Positions 26,594-49,418 of a DNA stretch of 64,000 nucleotides are shown one piece after another. The notes below the pieces were generated by a model. The model worked only from the letters and a program-made list of their open reading frames with translations. It was not told the DNA's origin and ran no database searches. Made by a program: the position numbers and the translations under genes. Origin of the DNA: a virus; the IMG/VR virus record IMGVR_UViG_3300050343_000285, positions 130,788 to 194,787 of that record; one strand, written 5' to 3'. Each line of letters starts with the position of its first letter. Positions within the stretch are counted from its first letter, which is position 1.

Positions 26594-27028
26594 CTAGTTT
26601 AGATTATCGAACAAACCTTTATAATACATTGGCTGTTTAACAAAGTGTGCTGCATGACTAGATATATGGTTTTTATATTGTTGTTCTATTTTATTTACTA
26701 CAAAATATTTTCTTTTCCATATCGCTTCATCATAATTATTATTACCTAAATATTCAAAATATTTGCTTGTCGGAATTTTGGATATATTATTTGATACAGG
26801 TTCTTTGGATGGTTTATAATTACCTAATAGCCATACATTATCTTTTTCATTTACTATATCTTTAATAGCCTCAGATAACCATATTTCCCACGAATCCCAG
26901 TCAAATTTAAAAGGTTTTGGAAATCCATGCTCATTATATTCATGGAATTGAGCGCCATCAGGATAATATTTGTATTCATCATCATCGTATTCATTATGTT
27001 CTGGGTCGTCGTACATAATATTCTCCAA
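26594..27028 (-). CDS. hypothetical acidic protein
   Basis: 144 aa ORF with GGAG Shine-Dalgarno. Confidence 0.7.
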   Translation of the reverse strand: MENIMYDDPEHNEYDDDEYKYYPDGAQFHEYNEHGFPKPFKFDWDSWEIWLSEAIKDIVNEKDNVWLLGNYKPSKEPVSNNISKIPTSKYFEYLGNNNYDEAIWKRKYFVVNKIEQQYKNHISSHAAHFVKQPMYYKGLFDNLN

Positions 27029-27029
27029 A

Positions 27030-27083
27030 AAAAATCAGGGACTACAAGATATAACTGACTACTATATTATACCCCATAGTCCC
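27030..27083 (-). terminator. long hairpin plus U-tract (intrinsic terminator)
   Basis: Minus strand GGGACUAUGGGGUAUAAU / GUUAUAUCUUGUAGUCCC, 18 bp with G-U pairs valid only on this strand, then a T-run; overlaps a possible TTGATC-17-TATAAT promoter (27066-27094). Confidence 0.6.
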
Positions 27084-27114
27084 ATTAAGATCAACTAACA
27101 CAGAACTCATAAGA

Positions 27115-27161
27115 GGATGTGGTGGGGTCGAACCACCTTAGCCCAAATTGCTCACCCATCC
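27115..27161 (-). ncRNA. tRNA-like minihelix element in rIIB 3' region
   Basis: GGAUG...GGUGG-UUCGACC-CCACC-A-CAUCC: 5-bp T-stem, canonical T-loop and acceptor-like helix, with only about 18 nt between. Confidence 0.45.
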
Positions 27162-27183
27162 AATCACAGGAAATCACAGACTA

Positions 27184-28024
27184 TTAAAATTCTTCGTCAT
27201 CTTCATCTTCAAACTGATCCCAGTAATCTTCATCATACTCATCATAAACTGTTGAGTATTCATCTTCATCAACATAAGAGTCTGCCTCAAACTCAGCCTT
27301 ATAAAGAGGCTTTGGCAATTCTCCCTGATAAAGACCGACTACTTCATATTTACAAGTGCGAAGTTTCTCACAGTTGCAATCGCTAGGAACACTGACAACA
27401 TCTTCAGGATTGATTTTAACAATCACGATATTATCACCAGCATCTACATTACCATAATTTGCAACATAGTTTAATGCTCCAGCATGAAGCCCAGCAGAAC
27501 ATCCTCTACCTCGATTGTCATCTACCTTTGCTCGACGCATTTCGCAGACCTGACCAACCTTATTGTCGAATGTTCCTTTCCACTTGTCTTTAAAGTCACT
27601 GTTGACTGCCTTGTATGCAAGAAAACAACCGTCTTCAGTGATAGGAAGATTCTCATGCTCCAAGAAATCATACAGTTCTTGCTGACTTTGCATACTTGGA
27701 TTCTCCATAAGATTTTCCAAGAATTTTACAAGAGGCTCAAAGGGCAAGCCCTTACTCATAAATTCTATAATTCTCTTGCTGATGCTACCGTGAACTTCTT
27801 CACCCTCAAACATCACCTTACCATTTACGATTGATACTTGTCCGTCACTAAAACTAGCAACAGCCTTTCTCAATGTCTACCAGTTCTAGCAACTCATCTT
27901 CTGTCGCAGTTGGTAGTGCTTCCAGAATCAACTTGTAATTAGTATGATCTGGAATTACTTGGTGAGCCTTATTCTTTAAGATCACCGTTAAGTTGCCGTC
28001 AACCCACATAAAAGGAACACTCAT
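27184..28024 (-). CDS. rIIB: rIIB-like protein (frameshift near 27870)
   Basis: Rebuilt MSVPFMWVDGN...; NPS..SQQELYDFLEH, TEDGCFLAYK, CSAGLH, VKINPEDVVSVPSD...KLRTCKYEV; follows rIIA. Confidence 0.9.
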
Positions 28025-28049
28025 AATTAAAACTCCTGTGATAAAAACC

Positions 28050-30696
28050 TTAAACCAAATTTCCTATTGCTGTTCTCAGTTCGCTGAGTTCAACATTGTC
28101 AAACCATTTGTCTCGACCATAGTAACCATTGTTGTGAATATCTGTAGGATCATTAGTCTTGATCCTCTCAATATCCAAATCGTCGTTACCACTAACAATA
28201 TACTTTAGTATCGGTGACTTGTCAATAGCATCTTTAAGAATTTTTCTAAGAGCATCCATTTTAGGCAGGGTCTTGATGATTGCCTGACTACAGTGATTTC
28301 TTACCAGTTGGTAACTCTTCGTAACCATACAGTTTCTTAAATTCAAAAAGCATATTGTTTAGTTTAAGCATTTTAGCATTAATATCCTTTGCATCTTCTG
28401 TGATATTGTATGCACTTGCTATATTGTCTACATGCTGTTCAAGTCTTTGTCTACTAAATACTCTAAGATTAAAGTATTCACTATTTGCAACTTGAGCAAA
28501 GTAGTATATAAGTAGCCACTGATCCATCGCCTGAGTGACTGTCTCATCTTTAATATAATCCTTGTAGTCAAGGCCATAGATATTTAAAAGATTAGCCATT
28601 AGAACTCTATCTGAACGCTCTGGACTGACTGTGCCAACTTCTTTGTCTTCTTAAAGTCTGAGGTAGAATATTCTTTGTCACAGTGATTGATGACTGCATC
28701 ATACTTGCCTACTTCTTCTCTTAATTTCTTAGACATTTTTGCAGCCTTACTCTTAAACCATTTGTTAAAGCATACTAGTTAATACCCTGCTTTTGTAGTT
28801 TAGATACTGAACTTTGTTTGATAGCATAGATGTTATATCTACTTGAATAGTAAAGCACCTAAGACATTATCTTTACCTGCTAGACTATAAATCTTATGAA
28901 TTCGGGATAAGGACTAACAGACTTATATCTAGTGATAGGAACATAGATTACTTGTTCAGCATCTTCTAGTCCTTCTACTAGACTATCGCTCAGTTCGCTA
29001 AGTTGAGCAGAGTCATTAAGATTATTGCCGCTAAGATCAGAACACTCATCAGGCTTATTAATCTTTAGAACTTTTTAGCAGAAAGATTTCGTCTTTACTA
29101 ATCATACCAGCACCAGTTCCAGTTCTCCCCTTGGTGCTAGACTGTAGCAGACTACGGTACTCAGAGATATTCTTGACGTTCTCTTCGCCACCAACATCTT
29201 TGATAAGTTTAGCGAAACCCTCACCAGAATCTTCTGCTGGATTTTGAGTGTCAACCATAAGATATGCCATACAATCATTTTGATTACAATATCTAATCGC
29301 AATCTTCTTGGCAGTCTCAGGACTTCTAGTGTCGCAGACAAAGAAGGCTAGAGGATTAGTCTTACGGGTCTTCTCCCAATAATTAGATGATCTACCTTGT
29401 AGACTTTCGTGATGGATTTTATCTGTAAGATACAACATTCTCTTGGAACGATGACTAGCAGTACGATAATTAATAACATACAACTGTTTATGTTTACCTA
29501 ATTTATAATCTAAGTCTTCACCAGCAGACAGATCATGTTTCTTACCTTCTGGATCGACCCATTCTGCACCAGCAGTATATCCACCAGCAATATCAGCCAG
29601 CTTATAATATGTTTGGTAAGCATCTATAAGATTAGTCACACTCTTCAACCTTGGTTGACATATTGCTCTTGAGTTGTAGATAAATATCTTGGGTCTTTTC
29701 TCTAAGAGTTTTAATAACACCCTTAGTATACTGTAGACCTTCTCTACTAACATCCATCTCTAGTTCACCAATATCGCAGGTGATCTCAAGATATATGCCA
29801 GAGTTTAATATCTCTTTGACTAGTTAGTCCAGTTGTCTACATCAGCTTTCTTAAATGCTCTATTCCATCTTTGGATAGCATCACTCTTTTGCTCTTGTTC
29901 TTCTTTGCCGATAATTTTATCGGAATCTACTGGGTACGCAATATTACCCATGATAGCCACAATACCAGCACCGGGACTGTTATATGTGCTAGGATATTTG
30001 TCATCATTATCAGATATTCTACCAACACGCCAGTTAGTCCCTTCTATAATAGTATTATTATGAGAATAAGCATGATTATCAAGAAGTTTACAAGTACCAC
30101 CTTCAAGAATTGGCTTAGTCTTAAAGTAATGAAAGATTCTCTTGGACTTTTCAGTAAACTCTTGGAAGTCACTTTGCTTTACTGCAAAACTAATTTCAAG
30201 ACCATTAGGCTCATCAGTATCAGTGACCCCAAATAGACTCAGACTAGGAACTCCGCCTTCATCCATAGCTGCTATGTAATTGTACGCTTTGCCATTGAAG
30301 AAAGAAGTTGTGCTAAAACTTTTAGTGTAAGCAAATGGACTCTTAGAACCAAGACCAAGACAACCAGTAAAATCGTTACTGTCATTCTTGTTACTAGCCC
30401 CATAAGTTGTATAGAGTTCTTCCATATCTTCTTGAGAAATCCAGTACCATAATCTCTCACCGTAAAGTTAGGGTTTGCTTGTGTTGGTAAACTTACTTTA
30501 AAGGATTTCTATTGCCTGATGCAACATGAGCATCATTAGCATTTGTAGACAGTTCACGAATAACTGCCATTACCTTGTCAGAATACAACGAATCTGACAA
30601 AATCTTAAACATTTTACTGGTCTGTGCGATACTGAACTGGTTGCTAGCATCAACACCATTTGAATGAATTTCAACTGTACGATCTGCAAGTTTCAT
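28050..30696 (-). CDS. rIIA: rIIA-like protein with N-terminal GHKL (HATPase) domain, several frameshifts
   Basis: LSDSLYSDK.MAVIRELSTNANDAH, RDYGTG, YTTYGAS.K..SND..G.LGLGSKSPFAY; fragments rejoin with single-base corrections. Confidence 0.88.
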
Positions 30697-30735
30697 CTAT
30701 TAGTCTCCAAAAGTTAATTGTCCTGTGATAGCCTA

Positions 30736-30764
30736 AGTATATCATCGGCTATTACTTGTGTCAA
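30736..30764 (-). promoter_or_regulatory. sigma70-type early promoter of rIIA
   Basis: TTGACA-caagtaatagccgatga(17)-TATACT. Confidence 0.85.
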
Positions 30765-39644: not shown

Positions 39645-39668
39645 GATTGAGTTTCTGTGATGCTCTCA

Positions 39669-39697
39669 AGTATATACTATGTTTATCGACTTGTCAA
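39669..39697 (-). promoter_or_regulatory. sigma70-type early promoter
   Basis: TTGACA-agtcgataaacatagta(17)-TATACT. Confidence 0.85.
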
Positions 39698-41377: not shown

Positions 41378-43202
41378 TAAGTTCTTCTGTACTCATGTCC
41401 CAAACAAAAGTTTCACCTGTATTTATATCAGAATTTTTACTGATATTATGCATTTTTACTATAGGGTATATATAATATTTTAATTTAATATCTAGATTAG
41501 CATTAGGCTCACAACAATATCCTAAAAATTTGTCCACAGGGCATGTAATTGACTTTTTAAAATTCCAATTAATAAATTCTTGATTTTTTATAGGATCATA
41601 TTCTTGAGGTTCAATACCACTTAATAGTTTAGGATTGTCTGTGGCTTTTAGTAGTTTTTTTGCTCCATTTAGGCTGAGTATATATGATTCTGCGCCGTCA
41701 AATAACAGCCTGTCATTTTCCCATCGTATTCTTTTTGATAAATTAATAAAATCGTCATCTTTATTTATAATAAGATTAGAATTTAATATCTCTTCTACAG
41801 TTTCTCCAAACACATCGTCTTCTAAAATTAATGCGTTTTCAATATTTTCATCGACAATTTTTTTCCATAATAAATAATGACTCAGGTATACCCCTATAGC
41901 ACCATTAGATTTTTTAAAATAAACATCGGAAGACATATTACAAGGATTGATTTCTAAATCATATTCCAGATGTTTTAAATGATTTGTCCTAGTATCTATA
42001 GCAGAAAATCTTTCTAATTTATTTTTAGATAGCAACTCCCATCTGTCTGATCTGTCATCTAAATTAATACAGAATATCCTATTGATTACAGATTTATCAT
42101 ATTTTATAGTGTTTTTTATATTATATCTATTTCTTCTAGGAGTCAAAGGAGAAAAGTTTGTACACATATATCTATTATTAAGTTCTGATGAGCCAGTATT
42201 TTGCTCAATATAACTATTAGTTCTTGAATCCTCATCATGGGGTATATGGTATATTGCATTATCAATATCAAACCAAACAACCTCAGTTATATCTGGATTA
42301 GATTTTTTAATTCTATTATAAAGATCAATCTCATCGTAACCATAACCATTCAGGTCTTCTCTAAAATAGGCATAGTCCCCCCTATGTATCATAAAAAATC
42401 CAGAAGTATGTCTAGAAAAATTATAATCTGATCTAATAAAATAGTTATGACATAATCCGTTTTTTAAATATATATTAAGCCAGTTACTATCTATTAACTT
42501 ATAGTCAGCATCTACCTTGATTATAATATCCCCAACAGAAAAATCGAATGCTAAATTGTAAGCCTTACCTAAATTGAAGTATGGCTCATCGTCTACTCGG
42601 AATAACTTTACTTTATCATAATCTTTCATATCTAAAGGAATATCCGATGAATAGTCTACAATAATTATTTCTGTAACTAAGTCAATATTATGCCAAGAAT
42701 CTAAAACCTGCAATAAGTTTTCTGTTCGATTCTTAGCGGCTATTATAACTGATACGGTTTTATCTAATGGTTTGTCTGACTTTAAAAAACCTATAGCCTT
42801 ACCGTGCATAACATAATGATAGAAATATTTTTCTCTTTTAGATATACCTATTTGAGTAGCGTGTGGCTCATAAAAGTCAATAACATTAGGGCATTGTTTC
42901 TCATAAAATACTTCATCAAAATTATCATCCACCCTATGTGTTTGATAAAATTGAGATAATGTAATTAAAGGTTGTTTGAAAGTTTTTTCTATTTCTTGAA
43001 TATCGGATTGATCAACATTTGTACTAGCATTTTGCTTAATATAATTATGAAAAAATAGCCTATGTTTATCGTTTATATTAATACTTTCACACAAAGACCG
43101 ATGAAAATTTTTTGCTTCTGGGTTTTTTAATAGATATTCTTTTTCATCAAAATTTTGGTCTACTATATGTGTTTTGTAAAATTCCTCTATAGAAATTATC
43201 AT
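41352..43202 (-). CDS. multi-domain glycosyltransferase (GT2/GT7-like plus GT25)
   Basis: Two FD..Y repeats, then AAKNR..NL, KVDAD, GYGYDE; then INLDDRSDRW, GAIG.YLSH, ILEDD. Confidence 0.85.
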   Translation of the reverse strand: MIISIEEFYKTHIVDQNFDEKEYLLKNPEAKNFHRSLCESININDKHRLFFHNYIKQNASTNVDQSDIQEIEKTFKQPLITLSQFYQTHRVDDNFDEVFYEKQCPNVIDFYEPHATQIGISKREKYFYHYVMHGKAIGFLKSDKPLDKTVSVIIAAKNRTENLLQVLDSWHNIDLVTEIIIVDYSSDIPLDMKDYDKVKLFRVDDEPYFNLGKAYNLAFDFSVGDIIIKVDADYKLIDSNWLNIYLKNGLCHNYFIRSDYNFSRHTSGFFMIHRGDYAYFREDLNGYGYDEIDLYNRIKKSNPDITEVVWFDIDNAIYHIPHDEDSRTNSYIEQNTGSSELNNRYMCTNFSPLTPRRNRYNIKNTIKYDKSVINRIFCINLDDRSDRWELLSKNKLERFSAIDTRTNHLKHLEYDLEINPCNMSSDVYFKKSNGAIGVYLSHYLLWKKIVDENIENALILEDDVFGETVEEILNSNLIINKDDDFINLSKRIRWENDRLLFDGAESYILSLNGAKKLLKATDNPKLLSGIEPQEYDPIKNQEFINWNFKKSITCPVDKFLGYCCEPNANLDIKLKYYIYPIVKMHNISKNSDINTGETFVWDMSTEELIDIYSSGK

Positions 43203-43301
43203 AAATTTTGTAACATCCGATTACTAATCAGATATGCATCCTAATAATTGTACGAATTATGGCTGGGTATTTCCTGGCTACAATAAATTACACCATTTTC
43301 A

Positions 43302-44623
43302 TCACACAACCCTAGAGTTTCCATGTAATATTTTAAATGTTGGAAATCTAAGACTAATACCTCCCTCTTGATTTTTAGTCTCTTCAAAATATTGTACAGT
43401 TATAACCTTACCCAAGATAGCATCAGGATTTTTATAAAAGTCTTGTCTTTGCTCTATACTAAATCCACTACCAACTCTAACAAGGTGATCTTTATGTTTA
43501 ATCATAAACAGCAGAAACATTTCTTCTTCACATTCTTTACCATCTTTAATGTAAGAATGGAAACATACCCATTTCTGTATCTACAACCTCATATTCGCAT
43601 CGTGAAAGGTTTTTACTTTAAAAATCTTTACTCGCTTACCTTTATATTGAACATTCTTACGAAGCATAACACCTTCCCAACCTTATCATCTGCTTTAGAT
43701 ACCCACTGTTGGAAGTGCTCGTCATCATCTGTACTATCTCCATTTCTAATGCAGATAGACAAGGACATTCATTATCCTCCATAGTAAACAATAGTTCTTT
43801 ATATCTTTGATATAGATTATGTTCACTTTTCTTTGCTTTAAACTCATCTTGCGTCATCATATCAAAGATTTTATAAGAAGGATTATTAATAGTATGATCT
43901 TTCTTACGAAGTTGTTTCATAATGCCTTGAAAGTCCTCATTACCATCTTCATCAATCAAACAGAGTTCTCCATCAAACACAACATCAGATAAACCAAGAC
44001 TTGCAATCCCATCGGCAACAACGCCCAAGGTAGTAAACTCTTTGCCCGTTCTGGAGTAGAAAGTAGTATTGCCAAAATGATCGACAATAGCCAAACATCT
44101 AACCCCATCAAGTTTACGAGATACAAACCACTCATCTTCCCACTCCACTAATTTAGGTTCATATTTTTCTGCAAGAGCAACACTGAACTCTGGAATAAAG
44201 TCAGGGAATAACTTTATTAATAAGTTTAATGCCAACCTTAGTCTTTAGGTCTTTATCTAAGATACAATAGACAAGTTCTTCTTGTTCAGGGATGTTTATT
44301 AATATAAGTATTTACAATTCTGATAGCATCATGTCCTGTATATCTACGAAGTTTTAAATCACTAAACAGTTGACACAAACCATATCCCGGTTCACAATCT
44401 CCGAAAGATAAATCTGGTCGCTTCTTAACTTGACTACTTGTTAAGCCATACATAAGATAATCATTATGTGCTAGATTTAATACATTTCTAGCATGAAGTT
44501 GATCTCCGTTATCTTCTTCTTTACCTGCTTTACAATACTTTGCAATAATTTCTTGTTTAGCAATAGTACTGCTGTTGTTACGCAGTTCATTATCATAGCC
44601 ATAACATATTCTGTGCTGTTCAT
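43302..44623 (-). CDS. ATP-dependent DNA ligase (frameshifted)
   Basis: SRKLDGVRC (KxDG), FDGEL, YKIFD, VGSGF, LRFP; N-terminus rebuilt from ATG at 44623. Confidence 0.92.
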
Positions 44624-44658
44624 TATATATCCTGTGTCCTGTGATTCCTGTTCCTTAC

Positions 44659-44687
44659 AGTATATACTGTTTATCGGCAGTTGTCAA
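44659..44687 (-). promoter_or_regulatory. sigma70-type early promoter of ligase
   Basis: TTGACA-actgccgataaacagta(17)-TATACT. Confidence 0.85.
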
Positions 44688-44938
44688 TCAGAATCTTTAG
44701 TGGAATCCCCAGTAAATAACTCTTGTATAGATTCTATTTTTGATGACAAAATTTCTTTTTGAAGTTGAGTAGTCTCTTGTTCTGTTTTTAGATCGTCTAT
44801 ATCCTGTTGTGCTATAGTATTTCTTACTAATTTATTAGCATGTTCATATCTTTCTATCTTTTTTGCTAAATTTTGTTCTAAAATTTCTTGTTGTTTTAAT
44901 TCTAATTTTAAAATTTTTAATTCAGTGTCTTTGCTCAT
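44684..44938 (-). CDS. coiled-coil hypothetical protein
   Basis: Heptad-rich 84 aa ORF after a promoter. Confidence 0.7.
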   Translation of the reverse strand: MSKDTELKILKLELKQQEILEQNLAKKIERYEHANKLVRNTIAQQDIDDLKTEQETTQLQKEILSSKIESIQELFTGDSTKDSD

Positions 44939-44967
44939 TATAATATCCTGTGAATTTATGACTTTTT

Positions 44968-44996
44968 AGTATACTATACAGAACCCTATTTGTCAA
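44968..44996 (-). promoter_or_regulatory. sigma70-type early promoter
   Basis: TTGACA-aatagggttctgtatag(17)-TATACT. Confidence 0.85.
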
Positions 44997-48946: not shown

Positions 48947-48956
48947 TATTTACACC
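48947..48956 (-). promoter_or_regulatory. GTGTA-type motif variant
   Basis: GGTGTAAATA overlapping the stop codon of 48950-49357. Confidence 0.35.
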
Positions 48957-49357
48957 TGTTGAAGATTCTTTCTCTTTAATTTTACTAATCTGTGCTTAGT
49001 TCTCCAAGTTTGAGTTAGGGGGCATTGAGAATCTTCCCCCATCCAAATATGACAGAAGCCGCCTTCTTTTGCTCCATACGCTATTATACCATTCTTATCT
49101 AAATTCATTACAGTAAATCTGCCTCTACATCCCATAGGAATAAATTCGCCGTCTACTACGGAGTATGGGCCTCCTGTGGCTTTAATAGTATCTCCCTTTT
49201 CCAACTCTTTCCAATCAAATTTCCTAATCATTTTTGTAGTTCTTTTCTCTTTGCTTTGAACCGCAAAAACAAAAGGATGTTGACATTCTGGACACATATA
49301 TGCTCTTGGCCCACACTGATGTCCGCATTTCTCGCAAGTCTTTTTACCTTTAGGCAT
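48950..49357 (-). CDS. Zn-ribbon hypothetical protein
   Basis: CEKC..QCG.RAYMCPEC. Confidence 0.7.
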   Translation of the reverse strand: MPKGKKTCEKCGHQCGPRAYMCPECQHPFVFAVQSKEKRTTKMIRKFDWKELEKGDTIKATGGPYSVVDGEFIPMGCRGRFTVMNLDKNGIIAYGAKEGGFCHIWMGEDSQCPLTQTWRTKHRLVKLKRKNLQQV

Positions 49358-49389
49358 CCTGTTTCTCCTGTGAAAGATTAATTGCTTTA

Positions 49390-49418
49390 AGTATACTATG
49401 TATATCGGTAGTTGTCAA
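49390..49418 (-). promoter_or_regulatory. sigma70-type early promoter
   Basis: TTGACA-actaccgatatacatag(17)-TATACT. Confidence 0.85.

Follow-up and report, generated by a model that had tools for sequence, protein, structure and literature searches.

Reverse copies of an early-gene leader word downstream of rIIB in uncultured T4-like phages: a candidate antisense module

CpxQ, SroC and DapZ are bacterial base-pairing small RNAs (sRNAs) that derive from 3' untranslated regions (3'UTRs), and OOP and DicF are regulatory sRNAs encoded by phages. In the icaR mRNA of Staphylococcus aureus the 3'UTR pairs with the 5'UTR via an anti-Shine–Dalgarno (anti-SD) UCCCCUG motif. Regulatory or mimic RNAs that are linked to tRNAs include the 3'ETS-leuZ sponge, the tRNA-like domain of tmRNA, YrlA and mascRNA. 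Post-transcriptional control in lytic phages is known mostly via proteins such as T4 RegA and RegB; RegA is a translational repressor of an early-gene regulon that includes rIIA and rIIB, and its sites are A/U-rich. CisR, which comes from the prtV 3'UTR, acts on CTX-phi mRNA (PMC13250501), and the lambda sRNA is a regulatory sRNA encoded by a phage (bioRxiv 10.1101/2024.10.31.621285).

The locus described here, downstream of rIIB in a virus record, resembles the 3'UTR-derived sRNAs in that a candidate seed directly follows the stop of its parent gene, would share the terminator of the parent and has 8–11 nt of complementarity at several translation initiation regions. It differs from them in being a predicted element of a lytic T4-like phage, in counting its own operon among the predicted targets, in having a tRNA-like element between seed and terminator and in being absent in close relatives. 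With the phage sRNAs it has in common a short phage-borne RNA segment that is proposed to base-pair during infection; those sRNAs, however, are driven by promoters of their own or are backed by experiment, and they act mostly on host genes, whereas the targets predicted here are the early leaders of the phage itself. As in icaR, a 3'UTR word containing UCCU has its complement in the SD region of the mRNA that carries it (in the cis variant, the rIIA leader and the rIIB SD), but the same word also stands in four other transcription units, so that action in trans is equally possible. For a job of the leader word that is independent of antisense, the closest parallel is the T4 RegA regulon, whose early genes, rIIA and rIIB among them, likewise have a short RNA word in common in or close to the ribosome-binding site, although the leader word differs from the A/U-rich RegA sites. 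Finally, the tRNA-like element has an acceptor, a T arm and a mini D arm without an anticodon arm, and as in the tRNA-linked RNAs the pairing segment adjoins a tRNA-type fold that could be cut by tRNA-processing enzymes; unlike those RNAs, it has no Rfam match, no Ro/TROVE gene accompanies it and it follows the protein-coding rIIB across the whole phage family. By analogy, the proposed module would be a variant of 3'UTR-derived antisense control combined with a leader-word regulon like that of T4 RegA.

The leader word of the early genes

The window, by which we mean the whole stretch of DNA that was analysed, is the last 64 kb of a single-contig virus record of 194,787 bp (33% G+C). Its minus strand carries all of its genes, and all features located below lie on that strand. 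The gene ending at 27184 was identified as the C-terminal domain of rIIB by tblastn against annotated rIIB genes, and the identities of the ligase and the Ogg-HhH glycosylase in the window hold up. rIIA and rIIB (27184–30696) and the ligase (43200–44630) are split over two or three frames by single-base indels, with each piece matching the expected protein; these splits are most likely assembly errors rather than pseudogenes. No close nucleotide relative of the window was found among isolated phages, and the rIIB protein is less than 50% identical to that of any isolate. Related stretches in IMG/VR number at least 228 and come mostly from marine and freshwater metagenomes; the phage family is large, uncultured, T4-like and abundant in marine and freshwater settings. 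Related loci and genomes are referred to by handles beginning with L and G, respectively.

Minus-strand TCACAG[GA]A sites are found at 30728–30721 (rIIA), 39660–39653 (glycosylase), 44644–44637 (ligase), 44953–44946 and 49373–49366. The preliminary description had placed this word downstream of five near-consensus promoters, and this is confirmed: the promoters read TTGACA-N17-TATACT, and the word follows the −10 by 7 nt (rIIA), 8 nt (glycosylase), 14 nt (ligase and the 44938 gene) or 16 nt (the 49357 gene), i.e. by 7–16 nt. Four of the five sites that it listed stand as given; its glycosylase site was off by one (39661–39654 including the preceding A) and the copy in the rIIB SD (28041–28034) had been missed. 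In the rIIA promoter and leader (30721–30764, word AUCACAGGA), TTGACA begins at 30764, TATACT occupies 30741–30736 and the word lies at the predicted transcript start. The glycosylase promoter and leader extend over 39653–39697 with the word AUCACAGAA, for which the homologue in G001 has TCACAGGA; those of the ligase (44637–44687) have three ACAGGA words and contain the 16 nt ACAGGAAUCACAGGAC. The other two promoters with a leader word precede a gene for an 83-residue coiled-coil-like protein that starts at 44938 (44946–44996) and the Zn-ribbon gene at 48950–49357 (49366–49418). The SD of rIIB itself, UCACAGGA(G) at 28034–28041, reads UCACAGGAG with AUG after 8 nt; it is kept at locus position ~4829 in most relatives and sits 150 nt from any promoter.

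The word is enriched. The window holds ten matches to TCACAG[GA]A compared with 3.1 ± 1.6 in dinucleotide shuffles, a count that none of 100 shuffles reaches, and genome-wide 5 of the 26 strict promoters have the word within 30 nt where 0.034 would be expected (Poisson 3.6e-10). Among 1680 8-mers of the same composition, TCACAGGA alone occurs in four leaders. Sense-strand matches outside leaders are TCACAGAA in coding-like context. All leader copies have one orientation, in this genome and in every relative.

Two features of the promoters themselves were also recorded. The 17-nt spacers of the TTGACA/TATACT promoters share (C)CGATA(A) family-wide (e.g. 49418–49390, 44687–44659 and 30764–30736). 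A second group of early promoters, situated outside the window at 4–15 kb of the genome and present also in G002, has GAUAUAACA, which is −10-like, at the transcript start instead of UCACAGGA; it might be a sigma-dependent pause site or simply a preferred start context.

The leaders of rIIA, rIIB, ligase, glycosylase and Zn-ribbon genes keep the word in relatives down to 75% rIIB identity. TCACAGGA stands 7 nt after the rIIA −10 in nearly all of the 45 loci that include the rIIA start, down to 77% identity, with the surrounding leader diverging, and Zn-ribbon homologues have likewise kept the word while the rest of the leader has diverged. In the complete genome G002 the word takes the form AACACAGGAG, and in G004 it is (U)CACAGGAG a few nucleotides before start codons; many other early leaders begin A-U/A-(A)-ACAC. 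(A)UCACAGGA(G) is a conserved, strand-specific word in one early-gene set, namely rIIA, rIIB, ligase, glycosylase, the Zn-ribbon gene and the small coiled-coil gene. It reads as a combination of the usual transcript-start context (A-U/A-CAC) with an AGGA(G) SD.

Because the leader word is present in lineages without a reverse copy, its first job is independent of antisense, and a candidate for this job is ribosome or protein binding at the RNA level. The fixed orientation and the promoter-distant rIIB copy argue for such an RNA-level role. Searches of the genome for candidate trans factors did not find CsrA, Ro/TROVE or Hfq; RegA (PF01818) and RegB had no genome match either, with the control genomes silent in both searches too.

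The protein of the Zn-ribbon gene (48950–49357) has 135 residues and is conserved family-wide; a CxxC...CxxC zinc ribbon forms its N terminus, and the C-terminal domain is all-beta. Its AF2 model has a pLDDT of 69, and searches gave no Pfam family, a weak PHROG match only and no structural match in the PDB at E up to 0.001. It was considered as a regulator and set aside: its own leader carries the word, but the structure search gives no basis for such a role.

The region downstream of rIIB

The rIIB gene ends in a double stop, TAA-TAG (27181–27186). Two tandem antisense segments directly follow it, as the preliminary description had proposed (27180–27172 and 27171–27162). Segment 1, UCUGUGAUU (27172–27180), is the reverse complement of AAUCACAGA and is present in the window and in L001–L003, L007, L009, L011, L020–L022, L036, L055 and L262. 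Segment 2, UCCUGUGAUU (27162–27171), is the reverse complement of AAUCACAGGA and is the copy that adjoins the tRNA-like element. A third, partial CUGUG word, UUCUGUGUUAG (27095–27105), immediately precedes the −35 of the next promoter. In L031, a locus without the tRNA-like element, this third word is the sole copy left and stands right after the stop codon; in L045 it is complementary over 9 nt to the start region of the rIIA gene of the same locus. Both the minimum-free-energy and the centroid fold leave seed 1 and most of seed 2 unpaired.

Chance alone can readily place one reverse 7-mer in an intergenic gap, as the window has three other plus-strand ATCACAG. A tandem CTGTGAT pair within 12 nt was found in 0 of 300 genome shuffles, and it is the tandem copy together with the conservation that lifts the reverse copies above chance. 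Ten 7-mers are common to at least three leaders and the seed core is the reverse complement of one of these, so that the probability of chance agreement is ~1e-3 to 1e-2. In G000 and G001 the rIIB 3'UTR is the sole clearly intergenic antisense copy; a lone intergenic antisense locus is what a single regulator gene acting on many targets would be expected to show. A plus-strand promoter that would make the reversed word a true leader was rejected on a consensus match of only 9/12.

The preliminary description also had the antisense segment followed by a tRNA-like element and a terminator, and both are present (27157–27115 and 27083–27027). The tRNA-like element (27115–27157, 43 nt) is without an anticodon arm and is made up of an acceptor GGGUG/CAUCC with G·U as the third pair, a mini D arm AGC-loop-GCU and a T arm GGUGG-UUCGACC-CCACC. 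Covariation supports the acceptor and T-arm fold: among 17 distinct sequences 94% of the cells are paired, with the T stem at 100% and its middle pair occurring as CG, UA or AU, and the acceptor shows GC, AU and GU. ARAGORN made no call at 27115–27161 or in 19 relatives, Rfam gave no family (tRNA and tmRNA included) at E up to 10 around the locus, and the element downstream of rIIB falls short of the full cloverleaf of a tRNA or tmRNA. Read-through coding across the element, which an open frame in the window and L037 would permit, was rejected: the stem changes are non-synonymous and the frame of L003 stops early.

In distant relatives (75–80% rIIB identity) the layout is the same with stems that are wholly different and inserts that are larger; the element always adjoins the end of rIIB, and a U run usually comes next. 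In L077, L060, L065 and L079 the element measures ~85–105 nt, the D arm is AGUC-UGGN-GACU and a long branched arm replaces the anticodon arm. The L077 variant (1796–1879) scores 25.4 bits over the whole tRNA model RF00005, below the gathering score of 29. From this whole-model alignment and the larger distant forms, the short element of the window looks like a reduced descendant of a tRNA-derived RNA. The tRNA-like element is older and far more widespread than the reverse copies.

A trailer CUUAU(G/U)A is common to the tmRNA (3' end 47633), the tRNA-Leu (35570) and the tRNA-like element (27114–27108), and none of the three encodes CCA; the common trailer suggests one shared route of tRNA-type 3' processing. 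In the freshwater loci L049, L058, L067, L071 and L079 and those of the L215 type, TTGAT-N-TGATAG, a short hairpin and a TATCCCAA-type sequence are found just after the tRNA-like element; this conserved motif could represent another class of promoter or an RNA hairpin.

The terminator of the rII operon (27027–27083) is an 18-bp hairpin (27083–27038) with U8 at 27034–27027, which a simple terminator scanner missed owing to the 10-nt loop. Its 5' arm holds the −10 of the next gene, TATAAT (GGGGUAUAAU, 27071–27066), and the −35, TTGATC, lies at 27094–27089. RNA reading through from upstream would form the terminator, whereas RNA begun at the embedded promoter cannot. This promoter-containing hairpin is unique in the genome and recurs in relatives (L004, L005, L008, L009, L028, L031 and L045) with different stem sequences; a match of GUUAUAU to the second leader word was discarded, since the 3' arm must in any case be complementary to the −10 in the 5' arm. 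Relatives with other downstream sequence have the tRNA-like element and a short U-rich trailer only. The gap downstream of rIIB is highly mosaic: at 96–99% identity in rIIB it may hold the tRNA-like element and the copies, a bare terminator–promoter hairpin or almost nothing.

Reverse copies and leader complementarity among relatives

The reverse copies are confined to one mostly marine subclade, where they always follow rIIB and occur only directly 5' of one type of tRNA-like element. There are one or two per genome, spaced by 9 or 10 nt and located 3–5 nt ahead of the acceptor stem; placed as they are between the stop codon and a terminator, they should be transcribed as part of the rIIB 3'UTR. 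In the freshwater sister subclade the tRNA-like element is preceded by an unrelated A/U-rich flank, and no copies are present. In all distant lineages the leader word is kept and the copies are absent. Of the 36 closest rIIB relatives, about 20 loci, at 85–98% rIIB identity, have neither the copies nor the tRNA-like element and have kept the leader word; in the complete genome G003 (153 kb) the rIIA word is present and TCCTGTGA is missing from both strands. Since relatives keep the leader word without an antisense copy, the essential, regulon-wide early-to-late timer envisaged in the preliminary description is not tenable.

Where the copies are present, the core CUGUGAU is invariant among 12 distinct sequences (0 of 7 columns vary versus 23 of 53 other aligned columns; Fisher p 0.037), and an extra CACAG abuts the rIIA AUG in 6 of 12 distinct copy-bearing loci versus 0 of 22 without copies; both tests are uncorrected for shared ancestry and comprise only two to four independent lineages. 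The core in the second copy, where there is one, is equally invariant. The L020-type 3'UTR is the perfect reverse complement of the 16-nt ligase leader ACAGGAAUCACAGGAC in G000, L001 and L002, which points to an origin as an inverted leader copy.

Complementarity to six leaders in the window amounts to 8–10 nt. The exact complementarity between a locus's own rIIA leader and its rIIB-downstream gap is 9–11 nt and beats shuffles (p 0.003–0.04) in the window and in L007, L019, L020, L024, L032, L045 and L055; in the L032 group it lies in the terminator loop. In lineages without copies it is not above shuffles, except for a low-complexity A-run in L028, and with G·U pairs allowed no locus beats its own shuffles. 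L034, which has a different rIIA leader and pairs over 9 bp including one G·U with its own 3'UTR, was rejected as a case of covariation (within chance, p 0.2). The compensatory change between 3'UTR copy and leaders for which the preliminary description had suggested looking was not seen: the leader word is nearly invariant, and L001 and L002, in which the rIIA word has changed to UCACAAGA, show no matching change in the 3'UTR. Leader energies from RNAduplex are −12 to −23 kcal/mol, or ~0 to 3.4 s.d. from the genome background, with at least 25 other places in the genome equal or better; this ranking is of plain duplex energy without accessibility, and the leaders are not singled out by it.

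In relatives without the tRNA-like element (L029, L032, L033 and L010), terminator loops with GUCUCC or UCUCCUGU are complementary to the GGAGAC SD region or to the ACAGGA of rIIA-type leaders. They may represent another route, independent of the first, by which an anti-leader word came to lie in the rIIB 3'UTR, or chance. Matches of the hairpin loop in the window to the glycosylase start region and of the L010 loop to the rIIA SD region were set aside as post hoc.

A candidate antisense module and its alternatives

We prefer, at a probability of roughly 0.4, to read the reverse copies as an accessory module of antisense control that derives from an inverted leader copy and works in cis or in trans. 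Part of a leader would have been duplicated in inverted orientation into the rIIB 3'UTR, after the stop codon and ahead of the older tRNA-like element, and transcription with rIIB would allow the copies to act. The single-stranded UCCUGUGAU segments would form 8–11 bp, and as many as 16, with the word at the 5' terminus or SD of early leaders. Their targets could be the other early mRNAs (in trans) or the rIIA leader and the rIIB SD on their own operon mRNA (in cis), and translation would be dampened or mRNA stability altered as rII transcripts accumulate. The tRNA-like element and the terminator would form the stable 3' body of the RNA. A module of this kind would tune expression and be dispensable rather than serve as an essential timer. 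It counts in its favour that the tRNA-like element has changed by compensatory substitutions while the seed core has stayed invariant. The absence of an encoded Hfq from the phage counts against it, as would cleavage of the tRNA-like element by RNase P in the manner of a tRNA, which would leave the seeds on an unprotected mRNA 3' end.

Somewhat unlikely, in our judgement, is that the inverted leader copy has no function, a piece of a paralogous promoter–leader cassette having been copied into a recombination hot spot after rIIB, where it persists by recent ancestry in linkage with the tRNA-like element. On the same rather doubtful footing, the leader word would recur since paralogous cassettes must keep a transcript start and an SD. 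The mosaic gap among loci with 96–99% identical rIIB favours this account, and so do the CUGUG words that flank the tRNA-like element on both sides (27168–27164 and 27102–27098; also in L045), between which L031 looks like a deletion. The early promoters have the spacer word CCGATA in common besides their leaders, which copied cassettes would explain; a copy event would produce the 16-nt identity with the ligase leader, and relatives dispense with the copies. Short repeated words in the recombining gap could, moreover, do no more than mark junctions. A copy that merely persists does not, however, sit well with a core that is invariant in both copies while neighbouring columns vary at 43% of positions, nor with a copy number (one or two) and a spacing (9 or 10 nt) that have changed when the core has not. 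The extra target words at the rIIA start, moreover, occur only alongside copies, and an inverted leader within a transcribed 3'UTR is physically antisense RNA, selected or not. On these patterns in the alignments, the copies are probably more than a leftover.

A role of the CUGUGAUU words as the 5' leader of the tRNA-like element, with cleavage or recognition sites that set the 3' end of the rIIB mRNA and free the tRNA-like RNA, and with an incidental complementarity to leaders, appears improbable. GA/UUU resembles the preference of RNase E, and RNase P makes leader contacts. The constant position of the copies 3–5 nt 5' of the acceptor stem fits such a signal, as do the greater age and far wider occurrence of the tRNA-like element and its trailer CUUAUGA, whose resemblance to the trailers of the phage's own tmRNA and tRNA-Leu suggests shared tRNA-type processing. 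Yet the tRNA-like elements of the freshwater sister subclade and of all distant lineages do without these words, their 5' flanks being A/U-rich and unrelated, and an incidental match to the most prominent leader word, over 10–16 nt in some lineages, is itself improbable.

Least probable of all is the orientation-independent DNA operator that the preliminary description had offered as its alternative, at which a phage or host protein would bind TCACAG[GA]A to shut off early promoters and would also bind the tandem reversed sites (as a roadblock or at the next promoter), for while the five sites at +1 to +16 of strong promoters are in a typical repressor position, the tandem copies are 10 bp (one helical turn) apart and CUGUG comes shortly before the −35 of the next promoter in the window, L024, L031 and L045, this reading fits poorly with leader sites that all have one orientation against one reversed locus per genome, with a rIIB site that is an SD far from a promoter, with repeated-word spacings of 7, 9, 10 or 13 nt across leaders and lineages, and with a single asymmetric word of 8–9 bp in which no dyad is apparent; nor did a candidate regulator emerge, the Zn-ribbon protein having no significant fold match.

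In its most far-reaching form, the antisense module would mean that in a lytic T4-like lineage an inverted copy of the phage's ligase leader became the seed of a regulatory RNA, embedded in a 3'UTR on a tRNA-like scaffold, which pairs with the 5'-terminal/SD word common to an early regulon that includes the rII operon and so makes early translation self-limiting; we consider this unlikely. Were it true, a base-pairing RNA in the rII-operon 3'UTR would add a different and fast-evolving layer of control. It could then be, to our knowledge, the first phage-internal sRNA regulon and a rare case of a traceable seed origin, a standing that we hold to be just as doubtful. The presence or absence of the copies among near-identical relatives, together with their traceable origin as an inverted copy, would in that case constitute a natural experiment in the emergence of an sRNA regulon. 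Whatever the outcome for antisense, a family-wide leader word defines an early-gene set in this uncultured marine and freshwater phage group, and a covariation-supported tRNA-like element, which is in no RNA family library, follows rIIB throughout the group.
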